This document shows positions 351 through 36,603 of a stretch of 64,000 nt of DNA, in pieces. Position numbers and translations under genes: made by a program. Source of the stretch: Escherichia coli. Its GTDB lineage: Bacteria; Pseudomonadota; Gammaproteobacteria; Enterobacterales; Enterobacteriaceae. Location of the stretch: assembly GCF_024700885.2 (NCBI RefSeq), contig NZ_CP117016.1. One strand, given 5' to 3'. How positions within the stretch are numbered: position 1 is the stretch's first letter; each line of letters begins with the position of its first letter. The notes beneath the pieces were generated by a model. It saw only the letters and a list, made by a program, of their open reading frames with translations. It was not told the origin of the DNA and searched no databases.

Positions 351-377
351 AGTGCTACCTTTAACTGTGCAGGATGA

Positions 378-2386: not shown

Positions 2387-3431
2387 CTTACTGAAAAAAC
2401 ACCACAATCTTGTTAAACATCGTCGGATTGGACTGATTACGTTGCACTTTCACCACATATTCCAGCTTATCTATTTGGCTTATCACCTACTCCAGACGCT
2501 GGTCATCCTTGACCAGTAGCCAGATATGGCTTTTGTCGCAGTCCTGAATCGGCAGGCAGAGAATGTCTTCAACGTTAAGAGCGCGACGGGCAAAAGCCCA
2601 CAAAGGTGAGTCATTACACCCGGATGGTAAACAGGCACTTCCTTGTTGTAGAAGCCGTTATATTGCCCATAATGTCTGGGTTTTTAATGCATACTGGGTA
2701 ACAACCGGACGAATCTTCGAATATCACTGGCGCTGCCAGCCGGTTTGAATTCATCTCACAACCCTGCATAGAGCGAATCTCCTGCCTGCACGTCACTCCA
2801 CTCCATGGTATCAACTTCACACTCTTTATCTGCGGCTAGCTTCAGCCACCAGATAAGCATCGACTATGAAAGATGAGCCATGACAACATAACGTTGGTAA
2901 CGCTCTGACGCCTTAATGGAAGATGCCTGCCACCATAGGGAATGTAAACGACTGAAGTGTGGCCTTTAATGCCGTGAACGGCTCATGGTCTCCTGGCACG
3001 GTTGCCGCCCCAACCTGTAACAACATTCCACAGTACAATGTCTGCCAGAGTCAGAGCCTCCCATGCTTGTTGTAGTAACTCTACCAGTTACGAACATCCT
3101 TCCTCAAAATTGTTGTCATATCTCGCATGGAAGAAAAGATCCTGGCTAAGGAGCAACACACAACGTATTGCGGAACTTGCATATTTTTCCTGTAACTAGT
3201 GTATTACCACATATGGTAATAGCTACCTGTGTGGTTTCGCTGGATAGCAAGGGGATTTATTCGCAAGTAAAATGCCTGATAAAATACACGAATCTAGTAA
3301 TCATCAATATTTACTCTGGTCGAATGACGCGTGAAAGTGGACGGCCAACAGACGCAGTCAGTGATCTACAGCCTGTTGAATAAAACCCCGGATGCTTCCC
3401 CCGATTCTGCAAGTAATACTTCGGTTATTTG

Positions 3432-3537
3432 CACTATTTTATCCCTGTTGAATTTGGTTAAGCCGGTGCAGACGCGCCGGGAAACGCACACCTGAACCGG
3501 CACAATAAAATACAATACAACCCCCTGTTACTGGAGA
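3432..3537. repeat. 106-bp sequence, identical second copy at 17603-17708
   Basis: Exact match read by eye between the two loci. Confidence 0.85.
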
Positions 3538-3544
3538 AATGCCT

Positions 3545-3838
3545 GCGCCGGGGTCCGATATGGCAGTATTGTTGCAGCCTGCGGCATGGCTCAGGGGATG
3601 GATTTGATGGGCAATATGGCTCCGTTTATTCTGCGTGGTGTCACGCTGAAAGGGATTGATAGCGTCATGTTCGCGAAAGAGAAAAGAGCAGCAATCTGGC
3701 AACAGGCGGTATAGTATTTGCCAGAGTCCAGAATGGATAGTCTCACTACCGTTTATCCGCTCAGTGACGCCATCACTGTGGCTGAAAAACTTCTGAGTGG
3801 CGGAATTCGCGGTCGTGCAGTCATTCAATATAGCTAAT
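3545..3838 (+). pseudogene. C-terminal fragment of a YhdH/AcuI-like quinone oxidoreductase
   Basis: Translation ...VAACGMAQGMDLMGNMAPFILRGVTLKGIDSVMFAKEKRAAIWQQAV(stop)...LSGGIRGRAVIQYS matches the MDR oxidoreductase C-terminus; no N-terminal part, internal stop. Confidence 0.55.
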
Positions 3839-3894
3839 TAGATGGATGCCGAGCTCAGGCTTAGTATAATAAGTTTTAGGGGCTGCGGCCCCTT

Positions 3895-4551
3895 TTACTG
3901 GCCAGTTGTTGCTTCCTGAGAAGACTGATAGCGTACCGAGGTTTTGAAATAGCTCCAGAAGTCGTACACTGGCTCAGTAGAACAATATAGTTTGGAACGC
4001 ATTACCGCACCTTCCCAGCCACTCCAGAAAATAGCCGCCAGTTGTGTATTATTCATATTTGAACTTATTTCGCCTGAAGATAACGCGTCGGACAGGCAGG
4101 CCGCAACAAGTGCCTGCCAGCTCTCAAGAATATTCTGTAGTACTTTAATGAAGGATTGGGGAAGCCCCGGACTCTCCTGCATCATATTTCCAACCAGGCA
4201 GCCGCGGGTAAAATTGTATTTTTTAATCCCCTCACAGGCATCATTGATGAAATTTTCCAGACGTACCATTGGTGTGCAGGATGATTCATGTAGATGTTTT
4301 TTGAGTTTATGCTCGAAGAAACTGTCATAGGCGTTCAGAACGGTCTGAGCATAATCCTCTTTACTCTTAAAGTAGTAATAAAATGAGCCTTTAGGGACAT
4401 TGGCATTTTTAACAATGGCATCGACTCCCGTCGCAAGAAAACCATTCTGCGTCAGCAGTTCAAGGCCACTGCGGATCAGATCATTACGAGTATCTGCATA
4501 GGTACTTTCTGTCTTTCGCGGCCTTCCCCGGCCACGATTTTCGCCTGTCAT
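3895..4551 (-). CDS. TetR/AcrR-family transcriptional regulator
   Basis: N-terminal TetR HTH (RNDLIRSGLELLTQNGFLATGVDAIVKNANVPKGSFYYYFKSKE); GGAG RBS before internal ATG. Confidence 0.8.
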   Translation of the reverse strand: MTGENRGRGRPRKTESTYADTRNDLIRSGLELLTQNGFLATGVDAIVKNANVPKGSFYYYFKSKEDYAQTVLNAYDSFFEHKLKKHLHESSCTPMVRLENFINDACEGIKKYNFTRGCLVGNMMQESPGLPQSFIKVLQNILESWQALVAACLSDALSSGEISSNMNNTQLAAIFWSGWEGAVMRSKLYCSTEPVYDFWSYFKTSVRYQSSQEATTGQ

Positions 4552-4798
4552 GACCCATCTCCTACATTTTATTAACGCAAAAGAATAAGTGATTTTGCGC
4601 GAGAGCTTCAATCAGTTTATCCCCGCAGTGGCAAAGTGTTCGCTTTTGCCGACTGGACAGTGGCAGTGCCTGTCGCTACTGCGCCATCGCTGAACAGTGC
4701 AGAATTAGCAACGTTTGCTTTTGGCACAAAGCATACGCCCATTCTCACGCGAATGCTTTGCCCTTGACTTGCCAACAACCGAATCGCTTGCTCTGCAG

Positions 4799-6091
4799 CT
4801 ATGTTTTTTTATTAGAATATTCGCCACTAAATAAATTATAATAAGTTGATTTTATTAGATATCTATCAGAATCTATATGGTCAGCACGAGTTGCATGCTC
4901 TAATGTTTCAAATGCCAGGGTATGTGCGGCTTCAGCAAATATCCCTGGCCAACCTTTACTCAGCATCGACAGTCCTTTAAGGACTCTTATCTGAATCTCC
5001 CTCATACTGGCACCATCGCGCGCGACAGGTGAGAAAAAGTCTTCCAGTAGATCGTTATTCTGAAGTGGTGCAACATGTACTGAAGGATATTTCACTTCTA
5101 TTTCATCAGATTTATTCTGCGCGTAAGTGGAAAGTATACGAACACCTCTGCCAATGACATCAATGGCGGTTCCAGGATCGTTCACTGCAGGGGAAAGGGC
5201 CCGGCAGGCTATTTCGGCCATGACGCTAAGACAAAATCGAGGATCCTGAGCAAATGAACGTGCATCCGAGACAATAATCGTCTCAAGTAAATCGGTGCTG
5301 ATTGACGACTCCTGGCCCTGACTCAGGTACAAAACTGGCATGGACGGATGTATGAAACTGCCTGGCTGCGCCACGAGGTATACATGACGGGGATCATTGG
5401 TCAGCAGCTTGCTAAGTTTCACCATATCAATATATTCAACATAGCCAATCTTCTTCGGATAAACTGCAACCGTTCCTTTCGGCTGTTCATTGTTCTCAAG
5501 CCATGGATATCCGCCGAGACAGGGATTTCTTGCTCTCGCAATAAATGTTTCGATGGCCGCCTGTTCTACTTGTGCCGTTGTCTCACCAACCCTCCCCAGA
5601 GAGGTCAAATGCTGTATCCAGCGAAGCAATGTGATGAGGATTAAGGCAATGACAACCAGTGTGACAATGAATAAAATGACTCTCCCCCTTTCTCCATAAG
5701 CTCCCATATTGAGGGCAATAATCCCTACCAGACTGAAGAGAAAAGAACCGATGAAGGTGGCCAGTACATTTTGTGTGGTGACGTCTTCAACAACTAAACG
5801 CGTAGCTCTGGGAGTCACATTAGTAGTGGCTGAACCGTAGGCTGTGACCATGATACTCAGCGAAAATGTGGTCACTGCCAGCATACTCGATGCCAGTATG
5901 TTCAGAATGTTATCGACTGCTTCCGCACCAACCTTCACGGAAACCGACTCAGGTATCATTGATTTAAAAAGAATTGATAAAAGGGCCGTTATTATCGCGA
6001 CAATTGCGAATAACGTTGCCCTGAACCATAGTTTTTTAATTGTCTGCTTCAGCATCCATTTCCAGCGTGAAATCATTCTGCATTCCCTCAT
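4799..6091 (-). CDS. Membrane protein, DUF2254-like; start codon uncertain
   Basis: Several N-terminal TM helices followed by a soluble domain; family assignment from memory. Confidence 0.5.
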   Translation of the reverse strand: MRECRMISRWKWMLKQTIKKLWFRATLFAIVAIITALLSILFKSMIPESVSVKVGAEAVDNILNILASSMLAVTTFSLSIMVTAYGSATTNVTPRATRLVVEDVTTQNVLATFIGSFLFSLVGIIALNMGAYGERGRVILFIVTLVVIALILITLLRWIQHLTSLGRVGETTAQVEQAAIETFIARARNPCLGGYPWLENNEQPKGTVAVYPKKIGYVEYIDMVKLSKLLTNDPRHVYLVAQPGSFIHPSMPVLYLSQGQESSISTDLLETIIVSDARSFAQDPRFCLSVMAEIACRALSPAVNDPGTAIDVIGRGVRILSTYAQNKSDEIEVKYPSVHVAPLQNNDLLEDFFSPVARDGASMREIQIRVLKGLSMLSKGWPGIFAEAAHTLAFETLEHATRADHIDSDRYLIKSTYYNLFSGEYSNKKT

Positions 6092-6138
6092 ATTGCGGCC
6101 GGGATAATAATTGCCGCCCCCAGGACGGCATGTTGCTA

Positions 6139-8142
6139 TTAACGAACCAGGTGCAGGAAGTGCAGATGTTTTTCGTACTGGTCCAGTATGTCATTAATCA
6201 GCTGTTCCTGGTTCCAGCCCATCACATCATAATTTTGACCGCCTTCTTTGAGATAAACCTCAGCGCGATAATATCGATGTTGTTCAGTCTGCTGCTCATC
6301 ATTATCCATTGCGGCGAGCGCGAAGGTCGGTGAGATATACCCGCGAAGCCTCACTTCATATATAAAATTCAGCTCGTTGCCCAAATCGACTTCAAGACGA
6401 ATACGATCGTCGACTGCATCACTAATGTGGCTTATCGTCCCCTGCTTGTTCAGTTCCTCCTGAACCAGCGTCATGGCGGGCTGGATAACGTCGTCCATAA
6501 AACGTTTCACAAGAGATCGCTTCGGCAGATACGCGATATTGCGTAACCTTCTCTGCCAAGGAATTGGGTTACGTGCAGCCGTAGGAGCAATTGTCGCCAT
6601 GCTCAGGCTTTCACGCTTGGTCAAATCCCGGCGCAAAGCTTTTAAAAGTCCGTATATAGATATTAGTAAGATCACTGAGAAGGGCAATGCACTCGCTATT
6701 GTCACCGTTTGCAGCGCACTTAGCCCTCCGGCAAGGAGAAGCGCAATTGCAACAATGCCCATGAGCGAGGCCCAGAATATTCGCTGCCAGACGGGTGTGT
6801 TTGCCACTCCACCTGATGCCAGAGTATCCACAACCATTGCCCCCGAATCAGCAGACGTTACAAAGAAGACGATGACCATCGCCATTGCAATGAATGACAG
6901 CACAGAAGAGAACGGGAAATGCTCCAGGAAATTAAACAGGGCCAGCGCCACATCCTGCTGAACAGTATTGGCGAGGTCTGTGGCCCCCTGGTTCATAATG
7001 AGATAGATCGCGCTGTTACCAAACACCGTCATCCACATTAGCGTAAAACCCGCGGGAACAAACAGCACGCCGGTGACAAACTCGCGAATGGTTCGCCCGC
7101 GGGAGACTCGTGCGATGAACATCCCCACAAACGGCGACCATGAAAGCCACCATCCCCAGTACAGTAATGTCCAGCCCCCCAGCCAGTTGCTCGACTTGGG
7201 CTCATACGCGTAAAGGTTGAACGTTTTACTCACCAGTTCCGAAAGATAACCGCCCGTATTTTCCACAAATGACTTCAGCAGAAGCACGGTTGGTCCCAGA
7301 CACAGGACCAGCGCCAGGAGCAACAAAGCCAGACCCAGATTGAGTTCAGACAGGATACGTATTCCCTTATCCAGACCGGACACCACTGAAATCGTCGCTA
7401 ACCCCGTGATGACCACGATCAGAATTACCTGCACCGTTTCATTGATGGGCACCCCGAAAAGATGGTTCAAACCGGCATTCACCTGCAAAACACCGTAACC
7501 CAGTGATGTCGCAACGCCAAAGACCGTGCCTATAACAGCGAAAATATCAACCGCATGTCCTACAGGTCCGTATATGCGATCGCCAATAATGGGATAGAGT
7601 GCGGAGCGCAGAGTTAAAGGCAGACCGTGACGGTAACTGAAGAACGCCAGAATCAGCGCCACAATGGCATAAATTGCCCATGCGTGCAGTCCCCAGTGGA
7701 AAAAGGTCAGACGCATTGCTTCCTTAGCTGCCGCAACGGTTTCTGGAGTGCCAACGGGTGGCGAAAGATAATGCATTACAGGTTCGGCAACGCCAAAGAA
7801 CATCAGGCCGATCCCCATCCCTGCCGAAAAAAGCATCGCAAACCAGGAGTGGTAGCTGAAATCAGGCTGCGCATGGTCCGGGCCCAGCTTGATATCACCG
7901 TAGCGTGAGAGTCCAAGGAACGTGACACTCAGTAAAATCAGGGCCACAGCAAGGATGTAGAACCAGCTGGCATTCGTGAAGATTTGTTGCTGAAGTAGTT
8001 TAAAATTTTTGTCGGCGACATCCGGGAATACGGCGGCAAAGGCGACAAGAAGGAAAATTAGCAAAGCAGATGTAAAGAATACCGCTTTGTTAATCTGACT
8101 TGTAGACTTCTTTGGGATTGTATCATTTTCACTCATAATCAT
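6139..8142 (-). CDS. BCCT-family transporter (BetT-like) with long cytoplasmic C-terminal tail
   Basis: BCCT signature WTLLYWGWWLSWSPFVGMFIARVSRGRTIREF and BetT-like length (667 aa). Confidence 0.8.
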   Translation of the reverse strand: MIMSENDTIPKKSTSQINKAVFFTSALLIFLLVAFAAVFPDVADKNFKLLQQQIFTNASWFYILAVALILLSVTFLGLSRYGDIKLGPDHAQPDFSYHSWFAMLFSAGMGIGLMFFGVAEPVMHYLSPPVGTPETVAAAKEAMRLTFFHWGLHAWAIYAIVALILAFFSYRHGLPLTLRSALYPIIGDRIYGPVGHAVDIFAVIGTVFGVATSLGYGVLQVNAGLNHLFGVPINETVQVILIVVITGLATISVVSGLDKGIRILSELNLGLALLLLALVLCLGPTVLLLKSFVENTGGYLSELVSKTFNLYAYEPKSSNWLGGWTLLYWGWWLSWSPFVGMFIARVSRGRTIREFVTGVLFVPAGFTLMWMTVFGNSAIYLIMNQGATDLANTVQQDVALALFNFLEHFPFSSVLSFIAMAMVIVFFVTSADSGAMVVDTLASGGVANTPVWQRIFWASLMGIVAIALLLAGGLSALQTVTIASALPFSVILLISIYGLLKALRRDLTKRESLSMATIAPTAARNPIPWQRRLRNIAYLPKRSLVKRFMDDVIQPAMTLVQEELNKQGTISHISDAVDDRIRLEVDLGNELNFIYEVRLRGYISPTFALAAMDNDEQQTEQHRYYRAEVYLKEGGQNYDVMGWNQEQLINDILDQYEKHLHFLHLVR

Positions 8143-8246
8143 TTATTCCATTAATTAAATTCGCACTGGATAGAAGGTACTACCTCTCACAAAGTAGCAA
8201 AGTTCAACTGGCTATGCGGCGTTAATCGGAATGCATGGTGGAATGT

Positions 8247-9493
8247 TGAGGTGTACTGGCAATAGCGGACACTACCATTTGTTCTTTTTTTAAGCAGCCA
8301 TCTGATGATATTTTTCCCTGAAGGCTGCCGGGGAGATATTCCCCAGACGAGAGTGACGACGCTGACGATTGTAGAAAATCTCAATGTATTCCCGTATTAC
8401 TGAGATGGCTTCATCCCGGTTATTAAAACGATAGTGGCTCAGGCTCTCATTTTTCAGCGTTCCCCAGAAGCTTTCCATCGGAGCGTTGTCGTAACAGTTA
8501 CCTTTACGCGACATTGATGTTTTCAGACCAAACTGCTCCTGTATGACACGGTAATCGTATGCGCAGTACTGTGAACCTCGATCAGAGTGGTGGATTAGCC
8601 CGGCAGGTGGGCGCTGGCTCCTGAGCGCCATAAACAGGGCTTTACCTGTCAGCTCTTTTGTCATGCGCTCTCCCATGGCGTAGCCGACAATTTCGCACGT
8701 ATAAACATCTTTGATGCCAGCGAGGTACAACCATCCCTCCTGTGTGGCAACATACGTCAGGTCCGCCACCCAGACCTGATTTGGTGCTGTAGGAGCGAAC
8801 GTCTGGTTCAGCAGATTTGGCGCAACTGGCAGATTGTGGTTCGAGTTCGTAGTCGCTCTGAACTTGCGTTTCTGCTTACAGCGTAGCCTTAGCTCCTTAC
8901 GAAGACGTGCCAGTCGGTCACGACCAACGATGATGCCATTCTCTGCCAGCTCCGTCTGGAGCTGCCGGGTTCCATATGTTTCGCGAGTGCGGATATGCGC
9001 CACCTTAATCTCCAGTTTTAGCCGCTCATCACTTTGTTTTCTGTCTGAGGGTTCATGCTGTACCCAGTTGTAATAACCGCTCCTGGATACACCAAATACC
9101 TGACACATCGCTTCAATGGGAAATTGTTGTCGCCATTGTTCGATTAACGCGTATTTTTCAGCGACTCCTGTGCAATTTAATATATCTCGCTCAAGGCGAG
9201 CTTCATTTAACGCCTTACGCAGTTGCAGAATTTCAGATTCCAGTTCAGCCACCGTGCGGGAACCAGGAGTACCGAGCCCTTTTCTGGCGGCGGTAACCCA
9301 TTGTCCTAAAGTGCCTTCAGGAAGAGATAATCGGGAAGCACCTTCACTGATCGAAAGTTGATTTTCAAGAACCGTTCTGACAGCTTCGGCTTTGAACTCT
9401 TTAGAGTAACGTTGGGTTTTTCTGCTCATTATTAGCTCCTTCTGATGCCATTCTATTTCAGGAAGGAGTGTCCGTTAAACTCAGGCTACCTCA
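8247..9493 (-). mobile_element. IS3-family insertion sequence (IS600-like), about 1.25 kb
   Basis: Imperfect terminal inverted repeats TGAGGT...CGGACACT at both ends flanking the transposase ORF. Confidence 0.7.
8290..9429 (-). CDS. IS3-family transposase, OrfA and OrfB fused in one 379-aa frame
   Basis: OrfA-like HTH and leucine zipper (LQLRKALNEARLERDIL) continuous with DDE OrfB (DLTYV, HSDRGSQY, GNCYDNAPMESFW). Confidence 0.85.
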   Translation of the reverse strand: MSRKTQRYSKEFKAEAVRTVLENQLSISEGASRLSLPEGTLGQWVTAARKGLGTPGSRTVAELESEILQLRKALNEARLERDILNCTGVAEKYALIEQWRQQFPIEAMCQVFGVSRSGYYNWVQHEPSDRKQSDERLKLEIKVAHIRTRETYGTRQLQTELAENGIIVGRDRLARLRKELRLRCKQKRKFRATTNSNHNLPVAPNLLNQTFAPTAPNQVWVADLTYVATQEGWLYLAGIKDVYTCEIVGYAMGERMTKELTGKALFMALRSQRPPAGLIHHSDRGSQYCAYDYRVIQEQFGLKTSMSRKGNCYDNAPMESFWGTLKNESLSHYRFNNRDEAISVIREYIEIFYNRQRRHSRLGNISPAAFREKYHQMAA

Positions 9494-9575
9494 TTGGTTC
9501 CCACTACTTATTTGGTGGACACCACTTTGTCTAATTCGTCAGATTCTGACCAGACGGTTCAGGCTGTACGCTTAC
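9494..9575. repeat. 82-bp IS66-family terminal fragment (solo end), identical to 17521-17602
   Basis: Ends in revcomp GTAAGCGTACAGC; identical to the left end of the IS66 copy at 15315-17602. Confidence 0.75.
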
Positions 9576-9609
9576 AAACAACTAGTGGAAATACTTGTAC
9601 TTTATAATT

Positions 9610-10554
9610 TCAAGGGTACGGGTCCGCTTCGTTTGATTTGCGTGTTTTTAACAATTTTAAAACCCAGACATACTGTTCCGGATGTGGCCCCACCAAAATT
9701 TCCACTGTTTTGTTCATTTGTCGGGCAATCATTTTATTGTCCGCGCTGGCAATGCAAGCATCCATTGGTGGCCGAATTTCAATAGTCAGGAGATGTTTTT
9801 TTTCATCATAAACCGGGAAAAGTGGTATAATCATAGCCTGACTGATGTTCATCAGACGTCCAATGATTGGTAATGTCGCTTTATAGGTCGCAAAAAAATC
9901 AGCAAATTCACTGTATTCAGGACCATGATCCTGATCTGGGAGGTAATATCCCCAGTATCCCTGGCGTACTGACTGAATAAATGGTTTTATCCCATCCTCC
10001 CGGGCATGTAAGCGCCCCCCGAATTTACGCCGTACTGAATTCCAGACATAATCAATCACTGGATTTCGTTGCTGATGAAACATGGCGGCCATTTTTTTTC
10101 CCTGAGCTGCCAGCAACATTGCAGGAATATCCACGCTCCAGCCATGGGGAACCAGAAAAATCACATTTCTATTATTGTGTCGAATTTCCTCAAGAATTTC
10201 GAGGCCTTTCCAGAACACTCGTTTCTGGAACTTTTCCGGACCACGAATTGCCAGTTCTGCCATCATCACTATGGATTGCAATGCTGTGGCAAACATTTTG
10301 TCGACAATTATTTCCCGTTCTGTATCACTCTTTTCTGGGAAACAAAGCGATAAATTAATCGTCGCCCTGCGACGAGCTTTTTTGCTCAATCTGCCCACCC
10401 AACGCCCTATTTTTGCCAAGACAGGATCTCTGAATGAAGGGGGAAACATTGAAATACCTGCAATCATTCCCAAAAGGAACCATGTAGACCAGTAAACAGG
10501 GGAAAGGTAATTTTTCTTAAATTCAGGAATAAACTCAGATTTATATTTTTTCAT
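9610..10554 (-). CDS. Lipid A secondary acyltransferase, LpxM/MsbB family (msbB2-like paralog)
   Basis: Lauroyl/myristoyl acyltransferase motifs (FLVPHGWSVD, YLPDQDHGPE); virK fragment immediately upstream as in shf-virK-msbB2 modules. Confidence 0.8.
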   Translation of the reverse strand: MKKYKSEFIPEFKKNYLSPVYWSTWFLLGMIAGISMFPPSFRDPVLAKIGRWVGRLSKKARRRATINLSLCFPEKSDTEREIIVDKMFATALQSIVMMAELAIRGPEKFQKRVFWKGLEILEEIRHNNRNVIFLVPHGWSVDIPAMLLAAQGKKMAAMFHQQRNPVIDYVWNSVRRKFGGRLHAREDGIKPFIQSVRQGYWGYYLPDQDHGPEYSEFADFFATYKATLPIIGRLMNISQAMIIPLFPVYDEKKHLLTIEIRPPMDACIASADNKMIARQMNKTVEILVGPHPEQYVWVLKLLKTRKSNEADPYP

Positions 10555-10618
10555 TATTTAGTGCGAATGCCTCTACCAAAATTATCATTACTGTTTTATT
10601 CAGAGAATACATCAAACC

Positions 10619-11233
10619 TTAATTTAAATTCTGATGTTCTGAGTGTACAGGATATGCATCCAAAGAGCGGATAGTAGTTTCATGGATATAATCCAGCAAA
10701 GCGTATCGTTTTCGGTACTCAGAGCGTTTTTTACTGGCTATATCGCTTAGCGGCTTTCGAATCACCTGGGTTGGTAATCTGTACCAGTCACCACAGGTTT
10801 TTCCTGCTACAGACTCCCAGAAATCACTATAGACCGCAACAAAGGTTTTGCGTTTCTGATACCAGTATCTCAATTGCCGGAAAACATGACTGTGCTCACT
10901 GACTGCCAGACACTCAGAGATATTGCAAGCTTTCATCAACGCACAAAATGCTTCAAAAATAATCCGTTTTGGGAAAATCCCATAACAGGCCCGGGTTGCG
11001 CACCGAATAACATCAGGTCCGGTATTTTTAGGGGCTCCCTGTAATCCGCCAATAAAAGCAATGTGTCCATTTTGAGTCAGAATGACTGAAAATGTTAACC
11101 GGGCAATAACTGTTTTATTGTAAAACAATGACAACATCAACTCTCCTTCCCGGTCAAAACCACTGGGAGAACACTGGATATCAAAATTCTCTCCATCTTT
11201 CCCGATGAATTGGACTAATGATACCGATTTTTG
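10619..11233 (-). pseudogene. virK: virK-like (DUF535) gene, C-terminal part only, cut by IS1
   Basis: Open frame runs from the IS1 boundary (...FIGKDGENFDIQCSP...) to the stop at 10619; N-terminal half absent. Confidence 0.55.
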
Positions 11234-11288
11234 GGTAATGCTGCCAACTTACTGATTTAGTGTATGATGGTGATTTTAAGGTGCTTGC

Positions 11289-11564
11289 GTGGCTTCCATT
11301 TCCATCAGATGTCCTTCCTGCTCCGCTACTGAAGGCGTGGTGCGTAACGGCAAAAGCACTGCCGGACATCAGCGCTATCTCTGCTCTCATTGCCGTAAAA
11401 CATGGCAACTACAGTTCACTTACACCGCCTCTCAGCCCGGTACGCACCAGAAAATCATTGATATGGCCATGAATGGCGTCGGATGTCGCGCCAGTGCACG
11501 CATTATGGGCGTTGGCCTCAACACGGTTTTACGTCACTTAAAAAACTCAGGTCGCAGTCGGTAA
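11289..11564 (+). CDS. insA: IS1 InsA
   Basis: [40 protein letters not shown]... Confidence 0.9.
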
Positions 11565-11986
11565 CCTCGCGCATACAACCGGGCAGTGATGTGATTGTCT
11601 GCGCTGAAATGGACGAACAGTGGGGCTACGTCGGTGCTAAATCACGTCAGCGCTGGCTGTTTTACGCGTATGACAGGATACGGAGGACGGTTGTGGCGCA
11701 CGTCTTCGGTGAACGCACTCTGGCCACACTGGAGCGTCTTCTGAGCCTGCTGTCGGCCTTTGAGGTCGTGGTATAGATGACGGATGGCTGGCCGCTGTAT
11801 GAATCACGCCTGAAGGGAAAGCTGCACGTTATCAGCAAGCGTTACACTCAGCGCATTGAGCGACATAATCTGAATCTGAGACAACATCTGGCAAGGCTGG
11901 GACGGAAGTCACTGTCGTTCTCAAAATCGGTGGAGCTGCATGACAAGGTCATCGGGCATTATCTGAACATAAAACACTATCAGTAA
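11483..11986 (+). pseudogene. insB: IS1 InsB frame with premature stop (TAG at 11774-11776)
   Basis: Copy 2 reads ...VVIWMTDGW (TGG); copy 1 reads ...VVV(stop)MTDGW (TAG). Confidence 0.85.
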
Positions 11987-12071
11987 GTTGGAGTCATTAC
12001 CTCCTCCCGAACTCAAAGCTATCATACAGATAATTACTGGTTAACCCTATATAGGGCATTTTAAAGTGTTG

Positions 12072-12408
12072 TGATCTTACCCAGCAATAGTGGACACGCG
12101 GCTAAGTGAGTAAACTCTCAGTCAGAGGTGACTCACAAGACAAAACAGTTTCAACCAGTAAAAAAACGTAAACACCATTCGCATGAATTTCGTAGTTAAG
12201 ATCTGAAGCTTGCAGAATGCATCGGTGTTACTGCCGGAGTCCGTGAACTTAGTCTGCATGAATCACCACAGCTTTACATCTGTCGCAGTAAACAGCAAAA
12301 TCAGCAAACTTACTTAATTATATCGAGTGCGATTACAATCGCTGGCGATGGTACAGTTGGTGTGGCGGTCTCAGTCCGGAACAATTTGAAAATCAGAATC
12401 TCACTTAA
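12072..12408 (+). mobile_element. IS3 remnant with large internal deletion (left end and orfA 5' joined to orfB 3' end; right IR missing)
   Basis: TGATCTTACCCAGCAATAGTGGACACGCGGCTAAGTGAGTAAACTCTCAGTCAGAGGTGACTCACA then ...[33 protein letters not shown] tail. Confidence 0.7.
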
Positions 12409-12746
12409 AACGGCATCCATTTTACAAAAGATGGCCGTCTGTGTATTTATAATGAATACCTTCTACATGTTTAGAGTGCATAATCCACGACAAGGCGATA
12501 TCCTAAAAATTAGCTAGCAGGCAACTTTGATGGCATAGATAATGTTTTTAGTAAAAAAGAGTTGACTTAATATAATACAGCCTCTTCCTACATAAGAAGG
12601 AATGTGCTCACAAAAAAAAACATTAGTCTGCTTCCTGTTCTTACAATAATCAGTATTATGTATTTTATTTATATAGCAAAATATGCTTGTTACACCTGTC
12701 ATAATTAGGCATGGTAAAATTATTGACTGAACCCTGGGGGAGAAAG

Positions 12747-13004
12747 ATGCACAGTGATTATTATAATATGGTTTTTGGTGAAAAATTGGCCAATATTTTA
12801 TATGAAGCTAACTCTCAATTTTTTTACGAGAGAAATGTCATAGAAGAGGCAGTCAACGCTTTATTCTGTGAGCGTGAAATAATAAACAACAAGAACATAA
12901 TAAAGAAGCTGATGTTCTTTTTGTCAGATGTTAATCACACCAAGAAAGATGTTGTTCAGAGCGCACTTAATATTATCATTGACATTACATCAGGTGATAT
13001 TTGA
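12747..13004 (+). CDS. Hypothetical protein (85 aa), AT-rich
   Basis: ORF with GGGGGAG RBS; no recognisable family. Confidence 0.3.
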   Translation: MHSDYYNMVFGEKLANILYEANSQFFYERNVIEEAVNALFCEREIINNKNIIKKLMFFLSDVNHTKKDVVQSALNIIIDITSGDI

Positions 13005-13264
13005 GATTTTACATAAAAGATAATCTCTCAAGGAGTCTTATCTGAAAACGAAATATATAGTCCCTCTCGTTTTGTAATATCGATTGGCTTTGTTGAATCG
13101 GTTACGTACCCCGGAGCCGGTCATATTTTCAGGTAATACACACGCTTTCAGACATTTCGGCTTTCGTCATTTTGGTATCATGGGCATAGCTTCTGCTACC
13201 TGACCATCATAATCACGCAGCTTCAGTGAAGCAGTGACCACCTGTTTAACCCGGTGTATCGTTA

Positions 13265-13465
13265 TGATCTTATCCAGCAATAATGGACACGCGGCTAAGT
13301 GAACCGCCCCGGGTTTCCTGGAGAGTGTTTTATCTGTGAACTCAGGCTGCCAGATCATCGTTTCCGATGGAAGCATAATAAGCTTTTTCTGCTTCTGCCG
13401 GTGGGATATGGCCCTGCCTTTCCAGCAATCGTCGATTGTTATACCAGTCCACCCACGTGAGTGTG
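13265..13465 (-). mobile_element. IS3-family right-end remnant (transposase C-terminus plus terminal IR)
   Basis: Minus strand encodes ...QYDELTTLTWVDWYNNRRLLERQGHIPPAEAEKAYYA then IR ending ...TGTCCATTATTGCTGGATAAGATCA. Confidence 0.65.
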
Positions 13466-13754
13466 GTCAGCTCATCATACTGACACGTGCATTACCCCTA
13501 CCGCGATAATGCAACCGTACAATATAGGGCGTTTCCTAAACGCAGCCCTCATCACTCCAATCCAACAAGACACAGCATTTTTGATCACGAAGAAAGACAA
13601 ATAATTTCCGTAAATGTTTCCGTTGTTACAAATAACAACAGTGTTTTACATTTCTTTGGCCTCAGGCCCGCGCATGTTGCCATTCGATGTCATTTTCCTG
13701 ACTCGTTTCTTCTTTATGGTGTAGTGTGATCTTCACTTTATGGATGCTAACAAT

Positions 13755-15113
13755 ATGAAAAGAAAAATTATTCCCGTGCTAATCGGTTGTACGCTCTCTT
13801 TCTCTGCCCTGGCGGCACAACCTACGGCTGAGCGCTATGTCGTCAGTTTTCCAGAAGGCACGCACGTGAACTACGCCGGCGCATTTGCCAGTGCATTCCC
13901 GAACGGCCTTCCGGTTGGGATAGGTTCTGGCCTGCTGTTCACCGGTAAACAGGGCGATGCCCTGACATTCGCAACCATTACCGATCGCGGTCCGAACGCG
14001 GATTCACCGAAAGAGGGGAAAAACGAAACTAAAATTTTCGTTACGCCAGATTTCGCGCCGCTGCTGATGACGATTCGTGTACAAAACGGCAAAGCGGAGG
14101 CCATCGATCCCCGTCCTCTGCATGACGATAAAGGCGCGATCAACGGTCTGCCGCTGGCAAGCGACGTGATTGGCTCCACCAATGAAGTGGCCTTCAGCGA
14201 CACGTTACATAGACTGAAGGGGGATAATCGCGGGCTGGATACGGAAGGGATCACTCCGGATGGTAAAGGAGGTTACTGGCTGTGCGATGAGTATGGCCCG
14301 TTCCTGATTAACATCGACAGTAAAGGGAAAATCCTGGCAATCCACGGTCCGCAGGCGGCGGAAGAGGAAAAAGCGATTGCGGGCGGTTTGCCAAATATCC
14401 TCAAATGGCGTCAGGCGAACCGCGGCTTTGAAGGCCTCACCCGTATGCCGGACGGGCGTATTATTGTCGCCGTGCAAAGTACGCTGGATATCGACGCTAA
14501 GAGCAAGAAAAAGGCGCTGTTTACGCGTCTGGTGAGCTTCGATCCGGCAAGCGGAAAAACCGCGATGTACGGTTATCCCATCGACAGCGCGGCCTACAGC
14601 AAAAACAGCGACGCTAAAATCGGAGACATCGTGGCGCTCGATAACCAGCACATCCTGCTGATCGAACAGGGAAGAGATAAAAACAACAGAATGCGTAACC
14701 TGATTTACGAGGTCGATCTCAATAAGGCGAGCGACCTGTCAGGCTTCGACAAGCCGGGTGAGTATCCGGAGTTTGATGATGAGAAAACCCTGTCACAGCG
14801 CGGCATTACCCTTGCGCAGAAAACGCAGGTTGTTGATCTGCGCTCCTTGGGCTGGCAGCAGGAGAAGGCTGAAGGGTTGGCGCTGATCGACAGCAAAACG
14901 CTGGCGGTGGCGAACGATAACGACTTTGGCGTGAAGGTGGCGATGCAACATCCGGTCGAGGGCAAGACATTCAAGGATTATCGGGTGAACGCGGAAGGAA
15001 AGCTGACGCTTGACGACAAGCAGGTTGAAACGACCCTCAGAGTGAAGCCACTGGAGAAACCGGAGTCTGACAGTGAACTGTGGATTGTGACGCTGCCGGA
15101 AGCGTTGAAATAA
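13755..15113 (+). CDS. Secreted phytase-like / esterase-like beta-propeller protein (452 aa)
   Basis: Signal peptide (MKRKIIPVLIGCTLSFSALAAQP); repeated D-x-G/beta-strand blocks; family assignment from memory. Confidence 0.5.
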   Translation: MKRKIIPVLIGCTLSFSALAAQPTAERYVVSFPEGTHVNYAGAFASAFPNGLPVGIGSGLLFTGKQGDALTFATITDRGPNADSPKEGKNETKIFVTPDFAPLLMTIRVQNGKAEAIDPRPLHDDKGAINGLPLASDVIGSTNEVAFSDTLHRLKGDNRGLDTEGITPDGKGGYWLCDEYGPFLINIDSKGKILAIHGPQAAEEEKAIAGGLPNILKWRQANRGFEGLTRMPDGRIIVAVQSTLDIDAKSKKKALFTRLVSFDPASGKTAMYGYPIDSAAYSKNSDAKIGDIVALDNQHILLIEQGRDKNNRMRNLIYEVDLNKASDLSGFDKPGEYPEFDDEKTLSQRGITLAQKTQVVDLRSLGWQQEKAEGLALIDSKTLAVANDNDFGVKVAMQHPVEGKTFKDYRVNAEGKLTLDDKQVETTLRVKPLEKPESDSELWIVTLPEALK

Positions 15114-15351
15114 GTTTATAAGGTACGGACAGCAGTATCGCTTAGTTTTTCAAATTCATGTATGTGAACAATATTGGGGTTCCGGCGTAGACCCCCAATG
15201 AAAGCGTCACCACGTGAAAACATGCCTGCACGGTTTACACGTCATCCCATGGTGGCAGCCGGTTAACTTTCCTGCGCCACCAGTGGAAAAAGGCCATAAG
15301 CAGTCCGAACAAAAGTAAGCGTACAGCGAGGGCCGTATTGACGGGGATGTG

Positions 15352-16736
15352 TTATTCAGCTGGCAGTGCTATGCGCCACGGAAGCAGTTCGCTGACCCGG
15401 TTGACCGGCCAGTCTGCTATGACGCCAGGCACATGGCGAAGGTAGCTTTCTGGATCCACGTCATTCAGTTTGCACGTCCCGATCAGGCTGTACAGTAGCG
15501 CTCCCCGCTCACCACCATGGCCAGAGCCGAAGAACAGGGTCTTCATCTTTTCACGCAACCAGCTTTCCAGGGATTTCAACAGCGGTTTCGTTTTTCGCTG
15601 ACGTTCAGCAAGCCGCTGCTCTGCCGGCATTCCCCTTATATCCGCCTCTATGGCGTACAACTGACCGATCTGCTCCAGGGCTTCTTCCGTCAGTGCTGAC
15701 GGGATGCGGACGTGCACATCGTGGATCTTTCGGCGGGCATGAGCCCAGCAGGCAGCTTCCGTTATCCCACCATTGCGATACAGCTCGTTGAACCCGGCGT
15801 ACGCATCCGCTTGCAGCACACCGCTGAAGCAAGCAAGATGAGTCTGCGGATGGATGCCTTTTCTGTCCGGGCTGTAAGCGAACCTCACTGCAGGTGCCAA
15901 CGCTGACCCGGCATTGCGGTCATCACGAACATACGCCCACAACCGCCCGGTCTTCGTCTTCTTATTACCCGGCAGCAGTACCTGGACCGGGGTATCATCG
16001 GCATGGAGTTTGCCGTCAGTCATGACATAGCCATGAAGCGCCTCTTCCAGCGGAGACAGCAGCCGGCAGCATGCATCCACCCAGCCCGACAGCAGTGAAC
16101 GGCTCAGCTCCACACCTTGCCGGCCGTATATTTCTGACTGGCAATACAGCGGGGTGTGCTCTGCATACTTCGAGGTCAGCACGCGGGCCAGCAGCCCCGG
16201 TCCGGCGATACCCCGCTCGATGGGCCGCGAAGGTGCAGGTGCCTGCACGATGGCATCGCACTGAGTACAGGCATGTTTTTCCCGTACCGTCCGGATAACC
16301 CGGAAGGCGCTACGCATCAACTCCAGCTGTTCGGCGGTATCCTCGCCCAGATAGCTCAGTGAACCGCCGCAGTTCGGGCAGCACGGCGCCGCAGGCAACA
16401 GTCGCTTTTCGTCACGGGGTAGTGATTCAGGGAACGGCTTACGGGTGCGGGTCTGACGCAACGGACGCTGTACTGCCGGGTCATACACCCTACCAGTCAG
16501 CGTATCGCTCTCTTTCTGAAGCCGGTTCAGATCGGCTTCCATTTGTGCGATACGGCGGGAGACTTTTTCGGAACGACTGCCGAAGTTCATCCGGCGGAGT
16601 TTATCCAGCTGCGCCTGCAGATGTCTATTTCGCGCTCCCGGTTGCTCAGCTTTTCCTGCAGGGCGTGGATCAGCGCTTCCTGTTCGGCCAGGCGCTGTTT
16701 CAGCAGGAAGATGTCGTCAGAAGAGATTTCGTTCAT
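15352..16736 (-). pseudogene. IS66 TnpC transposase with frameshift near the N-terminus
   Basis: MNEISSDDIFLLKQRLAEQEALIHALQEKLSNRERE... continues in another frame as ...QLDKLRRMNFGSRSEK...; shift lies around 16600-16630. Confidence 0.75.
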
Positions 16737-16785
16737 AAGCCCGTATTTTACCGGGCTTATTCTGTGACAACCAGGATAAAGAGAT

Positions 16786-17133
16786 TTACAGCATGGTCAG
16801 GGAGGTCAGCAGCCGCTTGGGCTGTCGCCAGTCGATACCTTCCAGCAGCATCGCCAGCTGCGCCTGCGTAAGGAACACTTTGCCATCACGGGCTGACGGC
16901 CAGGCGAAGCGCCCACGCTCCAGCCGTTTGGTCAGGAGGCACAGTCCGTCACCGGTGGACCACAGCAGTTTAACCTGACTGCCGCTGCGGCCCCGGAAAA
17001 TGAAAACATGGCCGGACATGGGATCGTCTTTCAGCGCCGTCTGTACTTTCGCAGCCAGGCCGTTGAAGCCATTTCTCATATCGGTGATACCGGCAACCAG
17101 CCAAATTTTGGTCCCGGAAGGTAACGGGATCAT
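16786..17133 (-). CDS. IS66 Orf2 (TnpB)
   Basis: MIPLPSGTKIWLVAGITDMRNGFNGLAAKVQ... Confidence 0.85.
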   Translation of the reverse strand: MIPLPSGTKIWLVAGITDMRNGFNGLAAKVQTALKDDPMSGHVFIFRGRSGSQVKLLWSTGDGLCLLTKRLERGRFAWPSARDGKVFLTQAQLAMLLEGIDWRQPKRLLTSLTML

Positions 17134-17468
17134 CGCTTCAGTTCCTGTATCAGCAGAGTCAGGAGCTTTTCGCTGACATTGCCATTGAAGCGGAGCGTCC
17201 CGTGCCGGAACGTTACCTCACAGCTGATACTGAGGGTTTCCGGGTCCTCTGCGAGCGATTCTGGCTGTTCGGCAGCTGCATCGGGAGTCACAGGAAGTAG
17301 CTGGGGGCTCTCTGAAGAAGGTAATAGCAGCTTTCCCTCGCGCCATTGTTGTCGCCATTTGAACAACAGATTGGCGTTAATGCCATTTTCAAGAGCAAGT
17401 TTTGAGATGGATATCCCGGGTTCACAGGAGGCAGCAACGAGCTGCTGTTTAAATTCGGGAGGATAATT
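17130..17468 (-). pseudogene. IS66 Orf1 (TnpA) without a canonical in-frame ATG start
   Basis: Frame encodes ...PEFKQQLVAASCEPGISISKLALENGINANLLFKWRQQWREGKL but is preceded by TGA with no ATG. Confidence 0.6.
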
Positions 17469-17602
17469 AGGGCAGCCTTTTCACCTGCCGGGAGTCACAT
17501 TTTTCTGCATATCTGACACTTTGGTTCCCACTACTTATTTGGTGGACACCACTTTGTCTAATTCGTCAGATTCTGACCAGACGGTTCAGGCTGTACGCTT
17601 AC

Positions 17603-17708
17603 CACTATTTTATCCCTGTTGAATTTGGTTAAGCCGGTGCAGACGCGCCGGGAAACGCACACCTGAACCGGCACAATAAAATACAATACAACCCCCTGTT
17701 ACTGGAGA
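17603..17708. repeat. Second copy of the 106-bp sequence at 3432-3537, abutting the IS66 terminus
   Basis: Exact match. Confidence 0.85.
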
Positions 17709-17864
17709 TACGAATGGAATGACGAGGCAGCCTGTCAGTCACAGGGGGCTGTTGGCATAAAATCAACGGAAAGGCCACCAACACCGGAATTAAGCTCCAC
17801 AGTCCCCGCACTGGCAATCCATTCCCGGGAAAGGCATCACCGCAAACTGCTCCGGAGGCAACCA

Positions 17865-18299
17865 TTACAGCCTCTGTAACGGATTATCAGCCCTGGCATC
17901 TTCCGACGGCACCTCCTGCCGCCCCCACGCCCTGCTGTATACCCCGGTACCGCAGCGTGGGCAGCACTTTTCCCCCTCATAATCTTCGTCACACATCACA
18001 CAAAACCACTTTCTCACCTTCACCGTATAATCCGGAACCGTCATGCCCTGCAGATGCAAACGACGGGCCTCTTTCTCCGCCGGGTCAAGCCAGGTACATC
18101 GCAGCAGGATTTTTTCAGCGACAGTCATCTGGTCATGTTCAAACCACGGTGGTTGTCCGTCATTGCCCCGCTGAAGTGTTAACGGGCATCCACAGGACAC
18201 ACAGCACAAAACGTCCTGTCGGTTGTGCTTCGCAGCTTCTTTCGCCGTAACAAAATGGCCTTTGCTGTCATTCGCCATATAACAGTTCAGAATTCGCAT
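17865..18299 (-). CDS. Cys-rich zinc-ribbon protein (144 aa), paralog of the next gene
   Basis: CxxC...PWFEH...WxCxxC...YxGExxCxxCxTG pattern shared with 18287-18694; AGGAGG RBS. Confidence 0.55.
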   Translation of the reverse strand: MRILNCYMANDSKGHFVTAKEAAKHNRQDVLCCVSCGCPLTLQRGNDGQPPWFEHDQMTVAEKILLRCTWLDPAEKEARRLHLQGMTVPDYTVKVRKWFCVMCDEDYEGEKCCPRCGTGVYSRAWGRQEVPSEDARADNPLQRL

Positions 18300-18694
18300 A
18301 TTTCCTCCTGAGTTGTCCGGGGAATACTGAATCCTCCGGTCTGGCAGTGTGTGCAGTACTGCTCCCCATAATAATCGTGGTGACATTGTCTGCAGTGCCA
18401 GCTGGCTTTACGCACCACGGGTAAGGCATCCGATACGAATTGCTGCAGACGTTTAATCAACTGTATTTCTCTGCGCTCCGGCCTGACATAAGGGCACTGT
18501 TGACCGTGCTCTGTCAGCCTGTCGTCAGTGTGTTCAAACCAGGGAAGTTCAGTGTCGTATTGCGGATGGTATCTGAGTGCACTGCCACACAAGTGGCAGG
18601 TGTAGTTAGCATAAGGTGCGTCCTGTGCAGTACGGGCGCCCGTCAGACGTCCGTTGCCATCAAGAGCGATAAAGGATTTTGCGTACATAGTCAT
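18287..18694 (-). CDS. Cys-rich zinc-ribbon protein (135 aa), paralog
   Basis: Same Cys/PWFEH pattern; overlaps the downstream paralog start by 13 bp. Confidence 0.55.
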   Translation of the reverse strand: MTMYAKSFIALDGNGRLTGARTAQDAPYANYTCHLCGSALRYHPQYDTELPWFEHTDDRLTEHGQQCPYVRPERREIQLIKRLQQFVSDALPVVRKASWHCRQCHHDYYGEQYCTHCQTGGFSIPRTTQEEICEF

Positions 18695-18947
18695 ATTCCT
18701 TAGCCGCCAGACGACACGCAGGCAACAGCCGTCCCGGTACGGGCAGCGTGGTCAGGGTGTGAATGGCGGTTCAGTTAAAATCTGGACTGGAGTTTGGGTA
18801 AAGCAGGCTGGTTGCTGTTACAGCACTGTGGTTGTCACACAATGGAACACTGACGTAAAAAACAGTCAGTGGGCGAGTGGATACATCGTTGCCGCCAGAC
18901 AACAACCCATACTTTTGGTTTGCCGGATATTGGCGCGCCAGTCGTGC

Positions 18948-19517
18948 TCAACTCCGGCTACAGCCAAAATTGCGCTCACCGGTGCAGTGAGCTTTGGTAT
19001 GCTCTTTCGCCAGATAGTCAGCACGTTCCAGCACTTGCTGAAAGCCGGTGTCATCATTACGCGCCAGCCACACCGCCGGCCAGGCCGGAAAATGCACCAG
19101 CGTGGCATGGCACCCGACATCCACTCCCAGGGCACTGCACCACGCCTGTTTAATCATCCCGGCCAGAGACTCCGGAGCGCGGTAATCACCGGCACGACAC
19201 CAGGTATCCCGGTTGACCAGCAGCATCAGGTGATAGTGTTTTTTACCTTTGAACTCCCCAAACTCCCGGGCCCAGACGTAATGCAGGGGGGTGGGATGCA
19301 CGCGTTTACCTTTCCGATGCTTACGTTTCTGGTAAGCGTCGATTCGGGCTTTCAGGGCATTGATGAAGCGGGATATCACAGCTGCGTCCGTTGCTGCCGG
19401 TACATCCGGGAGACGCAGGTCAACCCGCAATGCCGTCAGGCGGGGATGAACATTCAGTGCGTGCCGCACCGTCTCACGAATACGTTGCTGCCAGAAGGGG
19501 TTGTATTTGTAGGTCAT
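18948..19517 (-). CDS. Inovirus Gp2-like / YagK-YfjJ family protein
   Basis: LTALRVDLRLPD...HYHLMLLVNRD... resembles CP4-type prophage YagK/YfjJ; GGAGA RBS before MTYKYNPF. Confidence 0.6.
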   Translation of the reverse strand: MTYKYNPFWQQRIRETVRHALNVHPRLTALRVDLRLPDVPAATDAAVISRFINALKARIDAYQKRKHRKGKRVHPTPLHYVWAREFGEFKGKKHYHLMLLVNRDTWCRAGDYRAPESLAGMIKQAWCSALGVDVGCHATLVHFPAWPAVWLARNDDTGFQQVLERADYLAKEHTKAHCTGERNFGCSRS

Positions 19518-21144
19518 GGTTAAATCTCCGTATGGTTCATACGGAATAGCCACGTCGTAAAAAATGCGCAGAGTCCCTGAAGTGACCTCCGGCAGGACAC
19601 TGTCTCAGGCACTCTGTGATAACCCGAACGGTCGTCTCCGGACTGACGGTTGAATTTTCAGCGTCGTTTTTTAATGTAAAAAACCGGTTACGGGTAAGGC
19701 TGTGAGGAGGGAGTGATGGTGATACGCAAAAAGAAGTGCAGGGATTGTGGAAACGCGATTACTCATAATACAGTGTGTTGCCCGTATTGTGGTTCTGTCG
19801 ACCCCTTCGGCTACTACCGGAATACAGACCGTATCGTTACCATACTGCTGGCGCTGATTATTGTGGTCCTGCTGACTACTGTCAGCGTCAGTGTGTGTAT
19901 ACTGTGTAGCTGGTGAGATAACGGTTCATGTATCCCCTGAGCTGACAGTGTACCGTGTATATTAAGCGTAACCGACAGGTTCTCCTTCATACCATATTAA
20001 ATTTTCCAGGGATTGCCGCTGCCTTATTTCGTCTCATACAGGAAAACTCATCTGGGTTTCTGACAAATACGCGAAACTCACAGCCCCTCAATATCAACCA
20101 CACGTTGTAAGCCGGTAATACCTGAAAATCAGCCTATTACCGCCCACGCCTCCGGCACCATTCCCTTTTGATTTCGAATTCTTTGTTGTCGCTATACCGC
20201 TTAATGTTCCCGGTCCTCCGGTGCAGATAACACCGGAGTCATCGTAGCGCTGCTTCAATATTCAGGTGACATATTTCCAGACGGAAGCCGGCGCGCGATC
20301 GTAAAGTTTGTTCATTGTCAGTTCTGCCAGCCGGTTGTCAACGGCAGAGTTAAAGGCTTCCAGCTCCGCAAGGGTAAGTTTATAACGCGTGTGGGAATTC
20401 ACTTTTCCCGCGTCTCCTGACGTATTACGGGCTGCCACTTACCTGGTGTCCCGCAATACAGCCTTAGTGTTCCGTTATCGGGGATCCGGACGCACCGCAA
20501 CAACCGGGGAAGTATTTCTGGTTTAGAGCATTGTCAAGAGGGATTTCTCAGCCCCTCACTCACCGCTCAGTCTCAGGGCAGGAGCATTAATACGCTCAGT
20601 TCATGTCTTATACAGGAATGGGCACAGGGGGAGCTGGCGTGTCACTGCTGATTTTACGCATCAGCGTTCATGTATCTGCACTCTGATACATGAACGATTC
20701 ACAGCGCTCTGTTACCGGAGAGATTTACTCTCTTAGCTTACTCTGGCAAATCCTTTACGTTACTCTCTGATGACTTCTTATATTTATAATACCAATCAGA
20801 CAGCCTTATCCCATCGGTGATATCAGTCTCCTCCTCGCCAGGAACGGGCTGACTCACTGTAACCACCTCCGAAAACAACTCTGCAATTATCAGAACGCCT
20901 GCTTCTCTCCCTGTCCTCACGAAAACTATCCCCTCTTTATCGCGCGTGCGTGCGGAAGCATCTTTTCGCAACAACCACCCGGTATACCGGTACGGCTCAG
21001 CCACCGCAACCTCCCCGTTTATCTCCTGGCGGTCACATTCCCGATTATTTTTTACGTTTCTCCCCGGTTGTTATGCCGGTGAAGGTGGCGCGCTGTTTTC
21101 ATGACCACACCGGCTGGTTTAACAACATCCGGAGGAACATTCTC

Positions 21145-36598: not shown

Positions 36599-36603
36599 TT
36601 GAT

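Follow-up and report, generated by a model that had tools for sequence, protein, structure and literature searches.

Two direct repeats with separate histories in an insertion sequence-built mosaic of the Escherichia coli leuX island

RecA-dependent duplication and amplification by unequal recombination between short direct repeats is classical. Mosaics of mobile modules are described in the leuX (KpLE2) region of Escherichia coli, and in enteroaggregative E. coli (EAEC) 042 a chromosomal shf-rfbU-virK-msbB2 locus lies next to fec (PMC2808357). Here we analyze a 64-kb stretch of an E. coli chromosome (the window) that, according to the annotation of an identical record, belongs to the leuX-associated (KpLE2/CP4-like) island and carries two exact repeats: a 106-nt unit, F, and an 82-nt unit, E, the latter from the end of an IS66-family insertion sequence (IS). 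We refer to the DNA to the left and right of F as X and Y, respectively. A first-pass annotation had noticed both repeats and proposed that an IS66 element inserted next to the 106-bp sequence and that duplication, inversion or deletion then scattered the junctions. The observation is confirmed and its interpretation is partly right: the two repeats have separate histories, with no inversion. The two F copies bracket a composite insertion of 14,171 bp (3538-17708), a length equal to the repeat spacing.

The copies of F (F1, 3432-3537; F2, 17603-17708) and of E (9494-9575 and 17521-17602) are 100% identical within each pair and in direct orientation, as established by repeat search and string comparison. 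The positions reported earlier, including that of the second 106-bp copy just outside the IS66 terminus and that of the solo 82-bp end abutted by an IS3-family element, proved exact. The chance probability of a 106-nt exact match is ~1e-64 per pair, and a match of the length of F in 64 kb is therefore not due to chance. A repeat search of the whole 64-kb window returned only four direct-repeat families and 0 inverted repeats; with every repeat direct, the proposed inversion is unneeded. The last bases of E, ...GTACGCTTAC, are those of the GTAAGCGTAC terminus in reverse complement, a terminus that recurs at 15315. E therefore represents the end of the IS66-family copy at 15315-17602, an ISEc8 element. 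The solo copy of E adjoins an IS600 element exactly, at 9493/9494, and the first base of F2 is the first base beyond the ISEc8 terminus at 17602. Window positions 1-22000 are matched in a single piece by 217 complete E. coli genomes, so the arrangement is not an assembly artefact; strain MLI114 differs from it only in a homopolymer at 12612-12621 (A9 in the window versus A10). In addition, three metagenome contigs span both E copies. Reading the repeats as marks of rearrangement, more precisely as scars of IS-associated rearrangement, is supported.

The native setting of F is revealed by relatives without the IS elements. In an empty-site genome (L005), window segments 1-3072, 3371-3537 and 17709-19784 are contiguous, with no IS66 and no cargo. 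Two further genomes (H45 and H46) hold F and its right flank without IS66, and junction-centred searches found the left flank of F1 joined to F in other genomes too. From this empty site and the contiguity of the flanks elsewhere, the native order is X-F-Y; the first-pass annotation had called for a comparison with relatives of this kind. The 106-bp unit did not move: both copies are native relative to their outer flanks and bracket the insertion. F is ordinary native intergenic DNA, the tail downstream of the Zn-ribbon genes. We found no Rfam family, no promoter-like site and no significant structure in F (folding z-scores of -1.0 and -1.7), only a weak terminator-like hairpin, and a role for F as a functional element was rejected on these grounds. 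Elsewhere the two copies are not quite identical: F1 and F2 of other genomes differ in the number of AATAC repeats and at one single-nucleotide polymorphism, indicating that the duplication of F is old and has not always been homogenised. The AATAC repeat itself (3510-3525 and 17681-17696 in the window) varies in copy number from genome to genome and, in L004 and in L010, from one F copy to the other. The empty-site genome also lacks 298 bp at 3073-3370, a gap bordered by CTTGTTG/CCTGTTG microhomology; these 298 bp were either lost in that lineage or gained in the window.

Between the F copies, the first part of the cargo consists of an oxidoreductase gene fragment, a TetR/AcuR regulator, a DUF2254 protein, a BCCT transporter, IS600 and the solo E; the second part consists of lpxM, a virK fragment, IS1, IS3/IS1203-like debris, a phytase-like gene, a truncated DUF6404 gene and ISEc8. 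The joint between F1 and position 3538 is an abrupt break inside the oxidoreductase gene, with neither microhomology nor an IS end; the gene is intact, at 984 bp, on the Enterobacter plasmid pE76_001. Intact DUF6404 genes occur on F-type plasmids. The annotation shows no integrase gene between F1 and F2, and the window lacks tRNA genes. With F also featureless, the insertion does not have the makeup of an integrase-driven integrative element with att repeats.

Direct repeats of this kind could support recombination of the DNA between them, and one instance was found. We performed junction-centred searches of 5426 complete genomes, the collection to which the genome counts below refer. A chimeric query consisting of the ISEc8 end, F and the oxidoreductase fragment matched a contiguous joint in exactly one genome, that of 20AR0734, a urine isolate with three head-to-tail, F-bounded units of ~20.7 kb that carry fec. 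The array is bracketed by X-F on one side and F-Y on the other, and each internal joint is the predicted ISEc8/F/oxidoreductase sequence. It occupies ~4,261,600-4,324,000 of NZ_CP187211.1 (loci L054 and L055) and includes three fec operons. Identical direct F copies together with a tandem array that has F at its joints are what is expected of a unit amplifiable through direct repeats, and the tandem triplication shows the F copies apparently acting as passive homology for unequal crossing-over. As judged from these sequences, the F repeats would define a 14-21-kb unit able to amplify or be lost by homologous recombination. Close relatives can therefore differ in their copy number of fec, which this one isolate has three times, or of lpxM, and such F-bounded variation can confuse short-read assemblies.

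The right edge of the insertion is formed by ISEc8. This copy begins with GTAAGCGTACAGCG... at 15315 and, in reverse complement from 17602, with GTAAGCGTACAGCC..., giving the inverted repeats starting GTAAGCG that characterize the IS66 family; all three genes of the family set, tnpA-tnpB-tnpC, are annotated, and the copy is 99.35% identical to annotated ISEc8. Its tnpC is frameshifted and ~150 bp of internal sequence are missing relative to a full-length relative, so the copy is defective. The first-pass annotation had suggested a search for 8-bp IS66 target duplications; there is none at ISEc8, where the flanks are GAACAAAA and CACTATTT, and the flank of solo E is AAACAACT. The missing duplication indicates later rearrangement rather than non-membership of the IS66 family. 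An O104:H4 genome (NZ_CP136552.1; L006, 4410-6944) has the IS66-family element ISEc23 inserted 4 bp past F1, and its clean target duplication of 8 bp, GGAGAAAT, straddles the joint between F and the oxidoreductase gene. In a different lineage, then, a second element of the family inserted only a few bases from the F boundary. Because ISEc23 at the same locus behaves normally, the ISEc8/F joint is attributed to rearrangement and not to transposition in situ. A simple insertion of ISEc8 next to the 106-bp sequence, as proposed earlier, would leave an ISEc8 junction at X/F, which was found in 0 of the 5426 genomes. The insertion also does not conform to a composite transposon, since it has one defective ISEc8, an 82-bp stub and no target duplication.

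The solo E has a different background. Homology to Shigella pINV starts exactly at 9576, the first base past E, at 96.8-97.4% identity, which fits insertion of an ISEc8 copy into pINV-type sequence at a putative target AAACAACT. One locus (L012) has IS600, E, lpxM-virK-capU-shf, a truncated ISEc52 and fec in this order, with the shf operon complete and at 95% identity to pINV; this agrees with the description of EAEC 042 (PMC2808357). Solo E is also present without F on other replicons, beside either lpxM or an afa/eit plasmid flank. Since many unrelated ISEc8 copies share E at 100% identity, the identity of solo E to 17521-17602 is no evidence of common origin, whereas its own outer flank and its occurrence without F show that it comes from a different ISEc8 copy. 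Solo E is best read, from these comparisons, as a remnant of a second ISEc8 and not as a scattered piece of the ISEc8/F junction. Of the sequence of events proposed earlier, the adjacency of IS66 to the 106 bp therefore stands and the scattering of a single junction does not.

In the window, virK is cut at 11233/11234 by an IS1 end, and everything from there up to the fec-proximal IS1 is missing. This IS1 is likely the endpoint of a deletion that removed the 5' part of virK, capU, shf, the truncated ISEc52 and fec. Genomes of a fec variant of the two-F arrangement (L004 and L010) have the truncated ISEc52 and fecEDCBARI in place of E, lpxM and the virK fragment, and they differ from the window only in the stretch between IS600 and IS1. 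We infer a series from the fec variant, through a form with both fec and the shf operon, to the window by IS1-associated deletion.

Junction counts place these types in the population. The ISEc8/F/Y junction occurs in 1703 of the 5426 genomes, the junction of the phytase-like and truncated DUF6404 genes with ISEc8 in 2165, and the X/F/oxidoreductase junction in 589. The majority type (e.g., L058) has a K-12-like order of truncated ISEc52, fec, IS1 and further DNA up to the phytase-like gene and ISEc8/F-Y, with a single F and no X. Together, the majority type and these counts show that the right half of the window arrangement, ISEc8/F-Y, exists independently and widely. A derived single-F type, in which window position 3094/5 is joined straight to the IS1203-like tip at 13299, is present in 169 genomes. 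Genomes that hold the cargo with a single F were considered as possible ancestors and set aside: both of those examined are secondary IS-mediated deletions, reaching treR or fimE.

We consider it fairly probable that the window arose by the joining of two differently rearranged versions of one island region, which would have duplicated F, while E came from a separate ISEc8. In the first version, X-F would have been kept and the DNA to its right replaced by a plasmid-derived block of the oxidoreductase fragment, TetR, DUF2254, BCCT and IS600. The second would be the common version, with the truncated ISEc52, fec, IS1 and the segment through the phytase-like gene, the truncated DUF6404 gene and ISEc8/F-Y. 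The two may have been joined at IS copies, at the IS600 boundary, by homologous recombination or transposition; F would be duplicated because the breakpoints of the two versions lie on opposite sides of it. Separately, and in an order that is itself conjectural, insertion of a second ISEc8 may have taken place next to msbB2/lpxM in an shf operon of pINV/EAEC type, and an IS3-family element, IS600 in the window, would have cut this copy 82 bp from its tip. The shf module would then have come to lie beside the chromosomal IS600, the arrangement of EAEC 042-type genomes with adjoining shf and fec, and an IS1-associated deletion could have taken the 5' part of virK, capU, shf and the fec operon to give the window. 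Three points weigh against this reading: (i) An intermediate with X-F and the cargo, and without the downstream ISEc8/F-Y, was not found. (ii) The flanks of the empty-site genome are 3-5% diverged, so that it shows the native order and not the immediate ancestor. (iii) The far side of the original insertion of IS600 in ISEc8 was not recovered.

The main rival is a Campbell-type integration: a circular molecule, either a plasmid segment or a circle excised from the island, would have held one F with the ISEc8 end on one side and the oxidoreductase fragment on the other, and its recombination with the chromosomal X-F-Y through F would have brought in the cargo and doubled F at a single stroke. 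An insertion bracketed by direct repeats of its native target is the classical product of such an event, and much of the cargo is plasmid-derived. The joint that such a circle needs does exist in the 20AR0734 array, and a circle released by recombination between two F copies would carry it. However, the joint is present in 0 of 72,556 PLSDB plasmid records, and the tandem array is its only occurrence among the complete genomes. A prior event placing F on the circle would also be needed, leaving the first origin of the arrangement unexplained. We therefore regard this route as possible, if rather unlikely.

Much less probable is the earlier model, in which duplication, inversion or deletion scattered a single ISEc8/F junction to give both solo E and the second F. 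It draws on the contiguity of the two repeats at 17521-17708, each recurring once elsewhere in direct orientation, and on the absence of target duplications at both IS elements. It is contradicted by the outer flank of solo E, which differs and matches pINV from its first base, and by records in which E stands beside lpxM or an afa/eit flank with no F; E is moreover shared by many unrelated ISEc8 copies, F1 is native, and inverted repeats are lacking. Very improbable is one-ended or otherwise abnormal transposition of ISEc8, with staggered joining 106 bp apart being filled in to yield a 106-bp target duplication: although an IS terminus forms the exact right edge of the insertion and target DNA is directly duplicated around it, IS66-family duplications are 8 bp, as with ISEc23 here, the left edge lies inside a gene with no IS terminus, the ISEc8 copy is defective, and the right half stands on its own in most genomes. 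Finally, a collapsed or chimeric contig, which the first-pass annotation had named as what would overturn it, has practically no probability left given the 217 independent complete genomes and the metagenome contigs.

The IS600 copy that cuts solo E has the termini TGAGG...CCTCA, with TGAGGTGTACTGG... and TGAGGTAGCCTGAG... at 8247 and 9493, consistent with the TG...CA ends and imperfect terminal inverted repeats of the IS3 family, and is 97-99% identical to annotated IS600. It measures 1247 bp versus 1264 bp, and a 17-bp deletion takes out the A7G slippery site. In place of orfA and orfB linked by programmed -1 frameshifting, it encodes a 379-aa fusion (WP_000088351.1), a protein that is also annotated in PCN061; the IS600 copies of L010 and of pINV have the normal layout of 100 aa and 272 aa. 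The window IS600 is a variant copy, with a predicted natural, constitutive OrfAB fusion and no separate OrfA. Its flanks, AATGT/TTGGT, include no 3-bp target duplication; an ordinary IS600 insertion at another place has a TTC duplication.

The point at which IS600 meets E recurs elsewhere. We scanned metagenome contigs for E preceded by any base except the ISEc8 base and found truncated E in 37 contigs, 31 with the IS600 tip and 6 with that of another element, of the IS3 group (TGATCTTACCCACCAATAGTGGACAC...), which has an orfA of its own; a scan of genome contigs gave 0 matches. Joints of this second class are common on complete F-type plasmids of extraintestinal pathogenic E. coli beside eit/afa genes, with the outer flank GTGCTTAA. 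Two ISEc8 copies with different flanks have therefore been cut at the same nucleotide and in the same orientation by two IS3-family elements (examples: window, 9493/9494; L011, 8000/8001; L053, 5600/5601; metagenome loci L015-L051). One metagenome contig with an IS3-like element, E and lpxM (L042) was not used as evidence, as it is possibly chimeric across the 82-bp repeat. The reciprocal junction, from the ISEc8 interior (...TTG) to the right inverted repeat (IRR) of IS600, was not found in metagenome contigs or PLSDB. The partial matches to it came from an IS600 insertion unrelated to this one, bearing a TTC duplication, and from an ISEc8-like element inside IS600 in S. dysenteriae. No partner junction was found for the plasmid class of solo E either.

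Targeted insertion of IS911 next to sequences resembling its inverted repeats (IRs) is said to have been described by Loot et al. in 2002 and Rousseau et al. in 2008. The present case is similar in that IS600 and the IS3-group element abut ISEc8 at the same nucleotide, with a GGACAC core in register 3 nt from the E junction. It differs in that overall IR similarity is at background and neither a reciprocal junction nor a 3-bp duplication was recovered: the interior of E matches the IS600/IS3 terminal repeats at 10-12 of 30 positions, within the background across ISEc8. IR mimicry by E, with similarity at background except for the GGACAC core, was retained only as a low-probability lead. As a tentative proposal, ISEc8 nt 82/83 from the tip of the left inverted repeat (IRL) may be a preferred IS3-family target, perhaps in an IS911-like manner through the GGACAC core. 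If this is true, the fused OrfAB of the window IS600 would be a suitable test enzyme, since no separate OrfA is made. The shared truncation point and the fused transposase together offer a cheap, testable lead on target choice.

The remaining features are collected in Table 1. Within the debris that follows IS1, two IS3 terminal repeats (12068-12109 and 13261-13302; 42 nt each, 93% identical, direct) flank 1.15 kb that includes an IS5 fragment and an AriR/YmgB-like gene. At the fec-variant locus L010 the terminal repeat is single and this segment is missing.

Table 1 Features of the F-bracketed insertion and its immediate flanks
Feature	Position	Strand	Remarks
X: native island DNA left of F	3095-3431		Contiguous with F and the left flank in other genomes
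F1: first 106-bp copy	3432-3537		Left context native
Oxidoreductase 3' fragment (plasmid-type) and TetR/AcuR regulator	3538-4727		97.9% to Enterobacter plasmid pE76_001
DUF2254 protein and BCCT (BetT-like) transporter module	4796-8245	-	97% to Klebsiella IncF plasmids; homology stops at 8245
IS600 (IS3 family), orfA-orfB fused	8247-9493	-	379-aa open reading frame 8290-9429; annotated as IS600 elsewhere
Solo E: last 82 bp (IRL end) of a putative second ISEc8, cut by IS600	9494-9575	-	Outer flank AAACAACT
lpxM (msbB2) and virK 3' part, remnant of pINV/EAEC-type shf-capU-virK-msbB2 operon	9576-11233	-	
IS1 copy (pseudogene) truncating virK	11234-12001	+	
IS debris: IS3 IR copies (12072-12109 and 13265-13298) around AriR-like gene, then IS1203/IS629-like remnant, tip at 13299	12068-13473		
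Phytase-like esterase gene and truncated DUF6404 gene, adjoining ISEc8 IRR	13740-15312		
ISEc8 (IS66 family), GTAAGCGTACAGC termini, tnpA-tnpB-tnpC	15315-17602	-	Contains second E, 17521-17602
F2: second 106-bp copy	17603-17708		Right context native
Y: native DNA right of F, Zn-ribbon genes of CP4-like island	17709-18386	-	Contiguous with F in H45, H46 and L005

Beyond these features, the left neighbours are sugar-utilisation genes (fucP-like, rbsK-like and DeoR), and to the right lies a CP4-like block with Zn-ribbon genes, Hha, a YeeP-like GTPase, Ag43 and CbtA/YeeU, followed by restriction/defence genes, nanM-nanC and a truncated fim operon. Large genes at 33707-44715 encode an SNF2-related protein, a site-specific DNA methyltransferase, a DEAD/DEAH helicase and a phosphorothioated-DNA-binding restriction endonuclease; this block looks like a defence island within the CP4-like region. 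The IS1 copy at 11234-12001 has a direct counterpart 37.9 kb away, at ~49127-49894, with 91% identity over the first 300 nt. With fimD truncated by this second IS1 and fimB-fimC absent, the strain has an incomplete type 1 fimbrial operon. IS600 is joined directly to fimE by IS1 copies in PCN061.

Compared with known systems, the behaviour of the F-bounded unit resembles classical amplification in that direct repeats bracket the unit, a three-unit array occurs and an arrangement without the unit exists. It differs in the nature of the repeat, which is 106 bp of non-mobile intergenic DNA and not an IS or an rRNA operon. Like a composite transposon or an IS26-like translocatable unit, the window has cargo between IS-derived DNA with identical, direct 82-bp ends; unlike them, it has one near-complete, defective ISEc8 plus a stub, no target duplications, and an amplifying unit bounded by F and not by IS ends. 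The literature searched on the leuX/KpLE2 mosaic makes no mention of a 106-bp bracketing repeat or a solo ISEc8 end. The likeness to that mosaic, including EAEC 042, extends to the region itself (from sugar-utilisation genes to nanC/fim), to the modules (the fec variant, shf/msbB2 and CP4-like genes) and to the IS1, IS3-family and IS66-family elements at their borders. The window departs from the EAEC 042 locus in that its shf operon is reduced to lpxM and a virK fragment and there is no fec. All of the elements and modules are already known; the region is not a new system but an IS-built mosaic of known modules in the leuX island, of a kind that is ordinary for E. coli islands.

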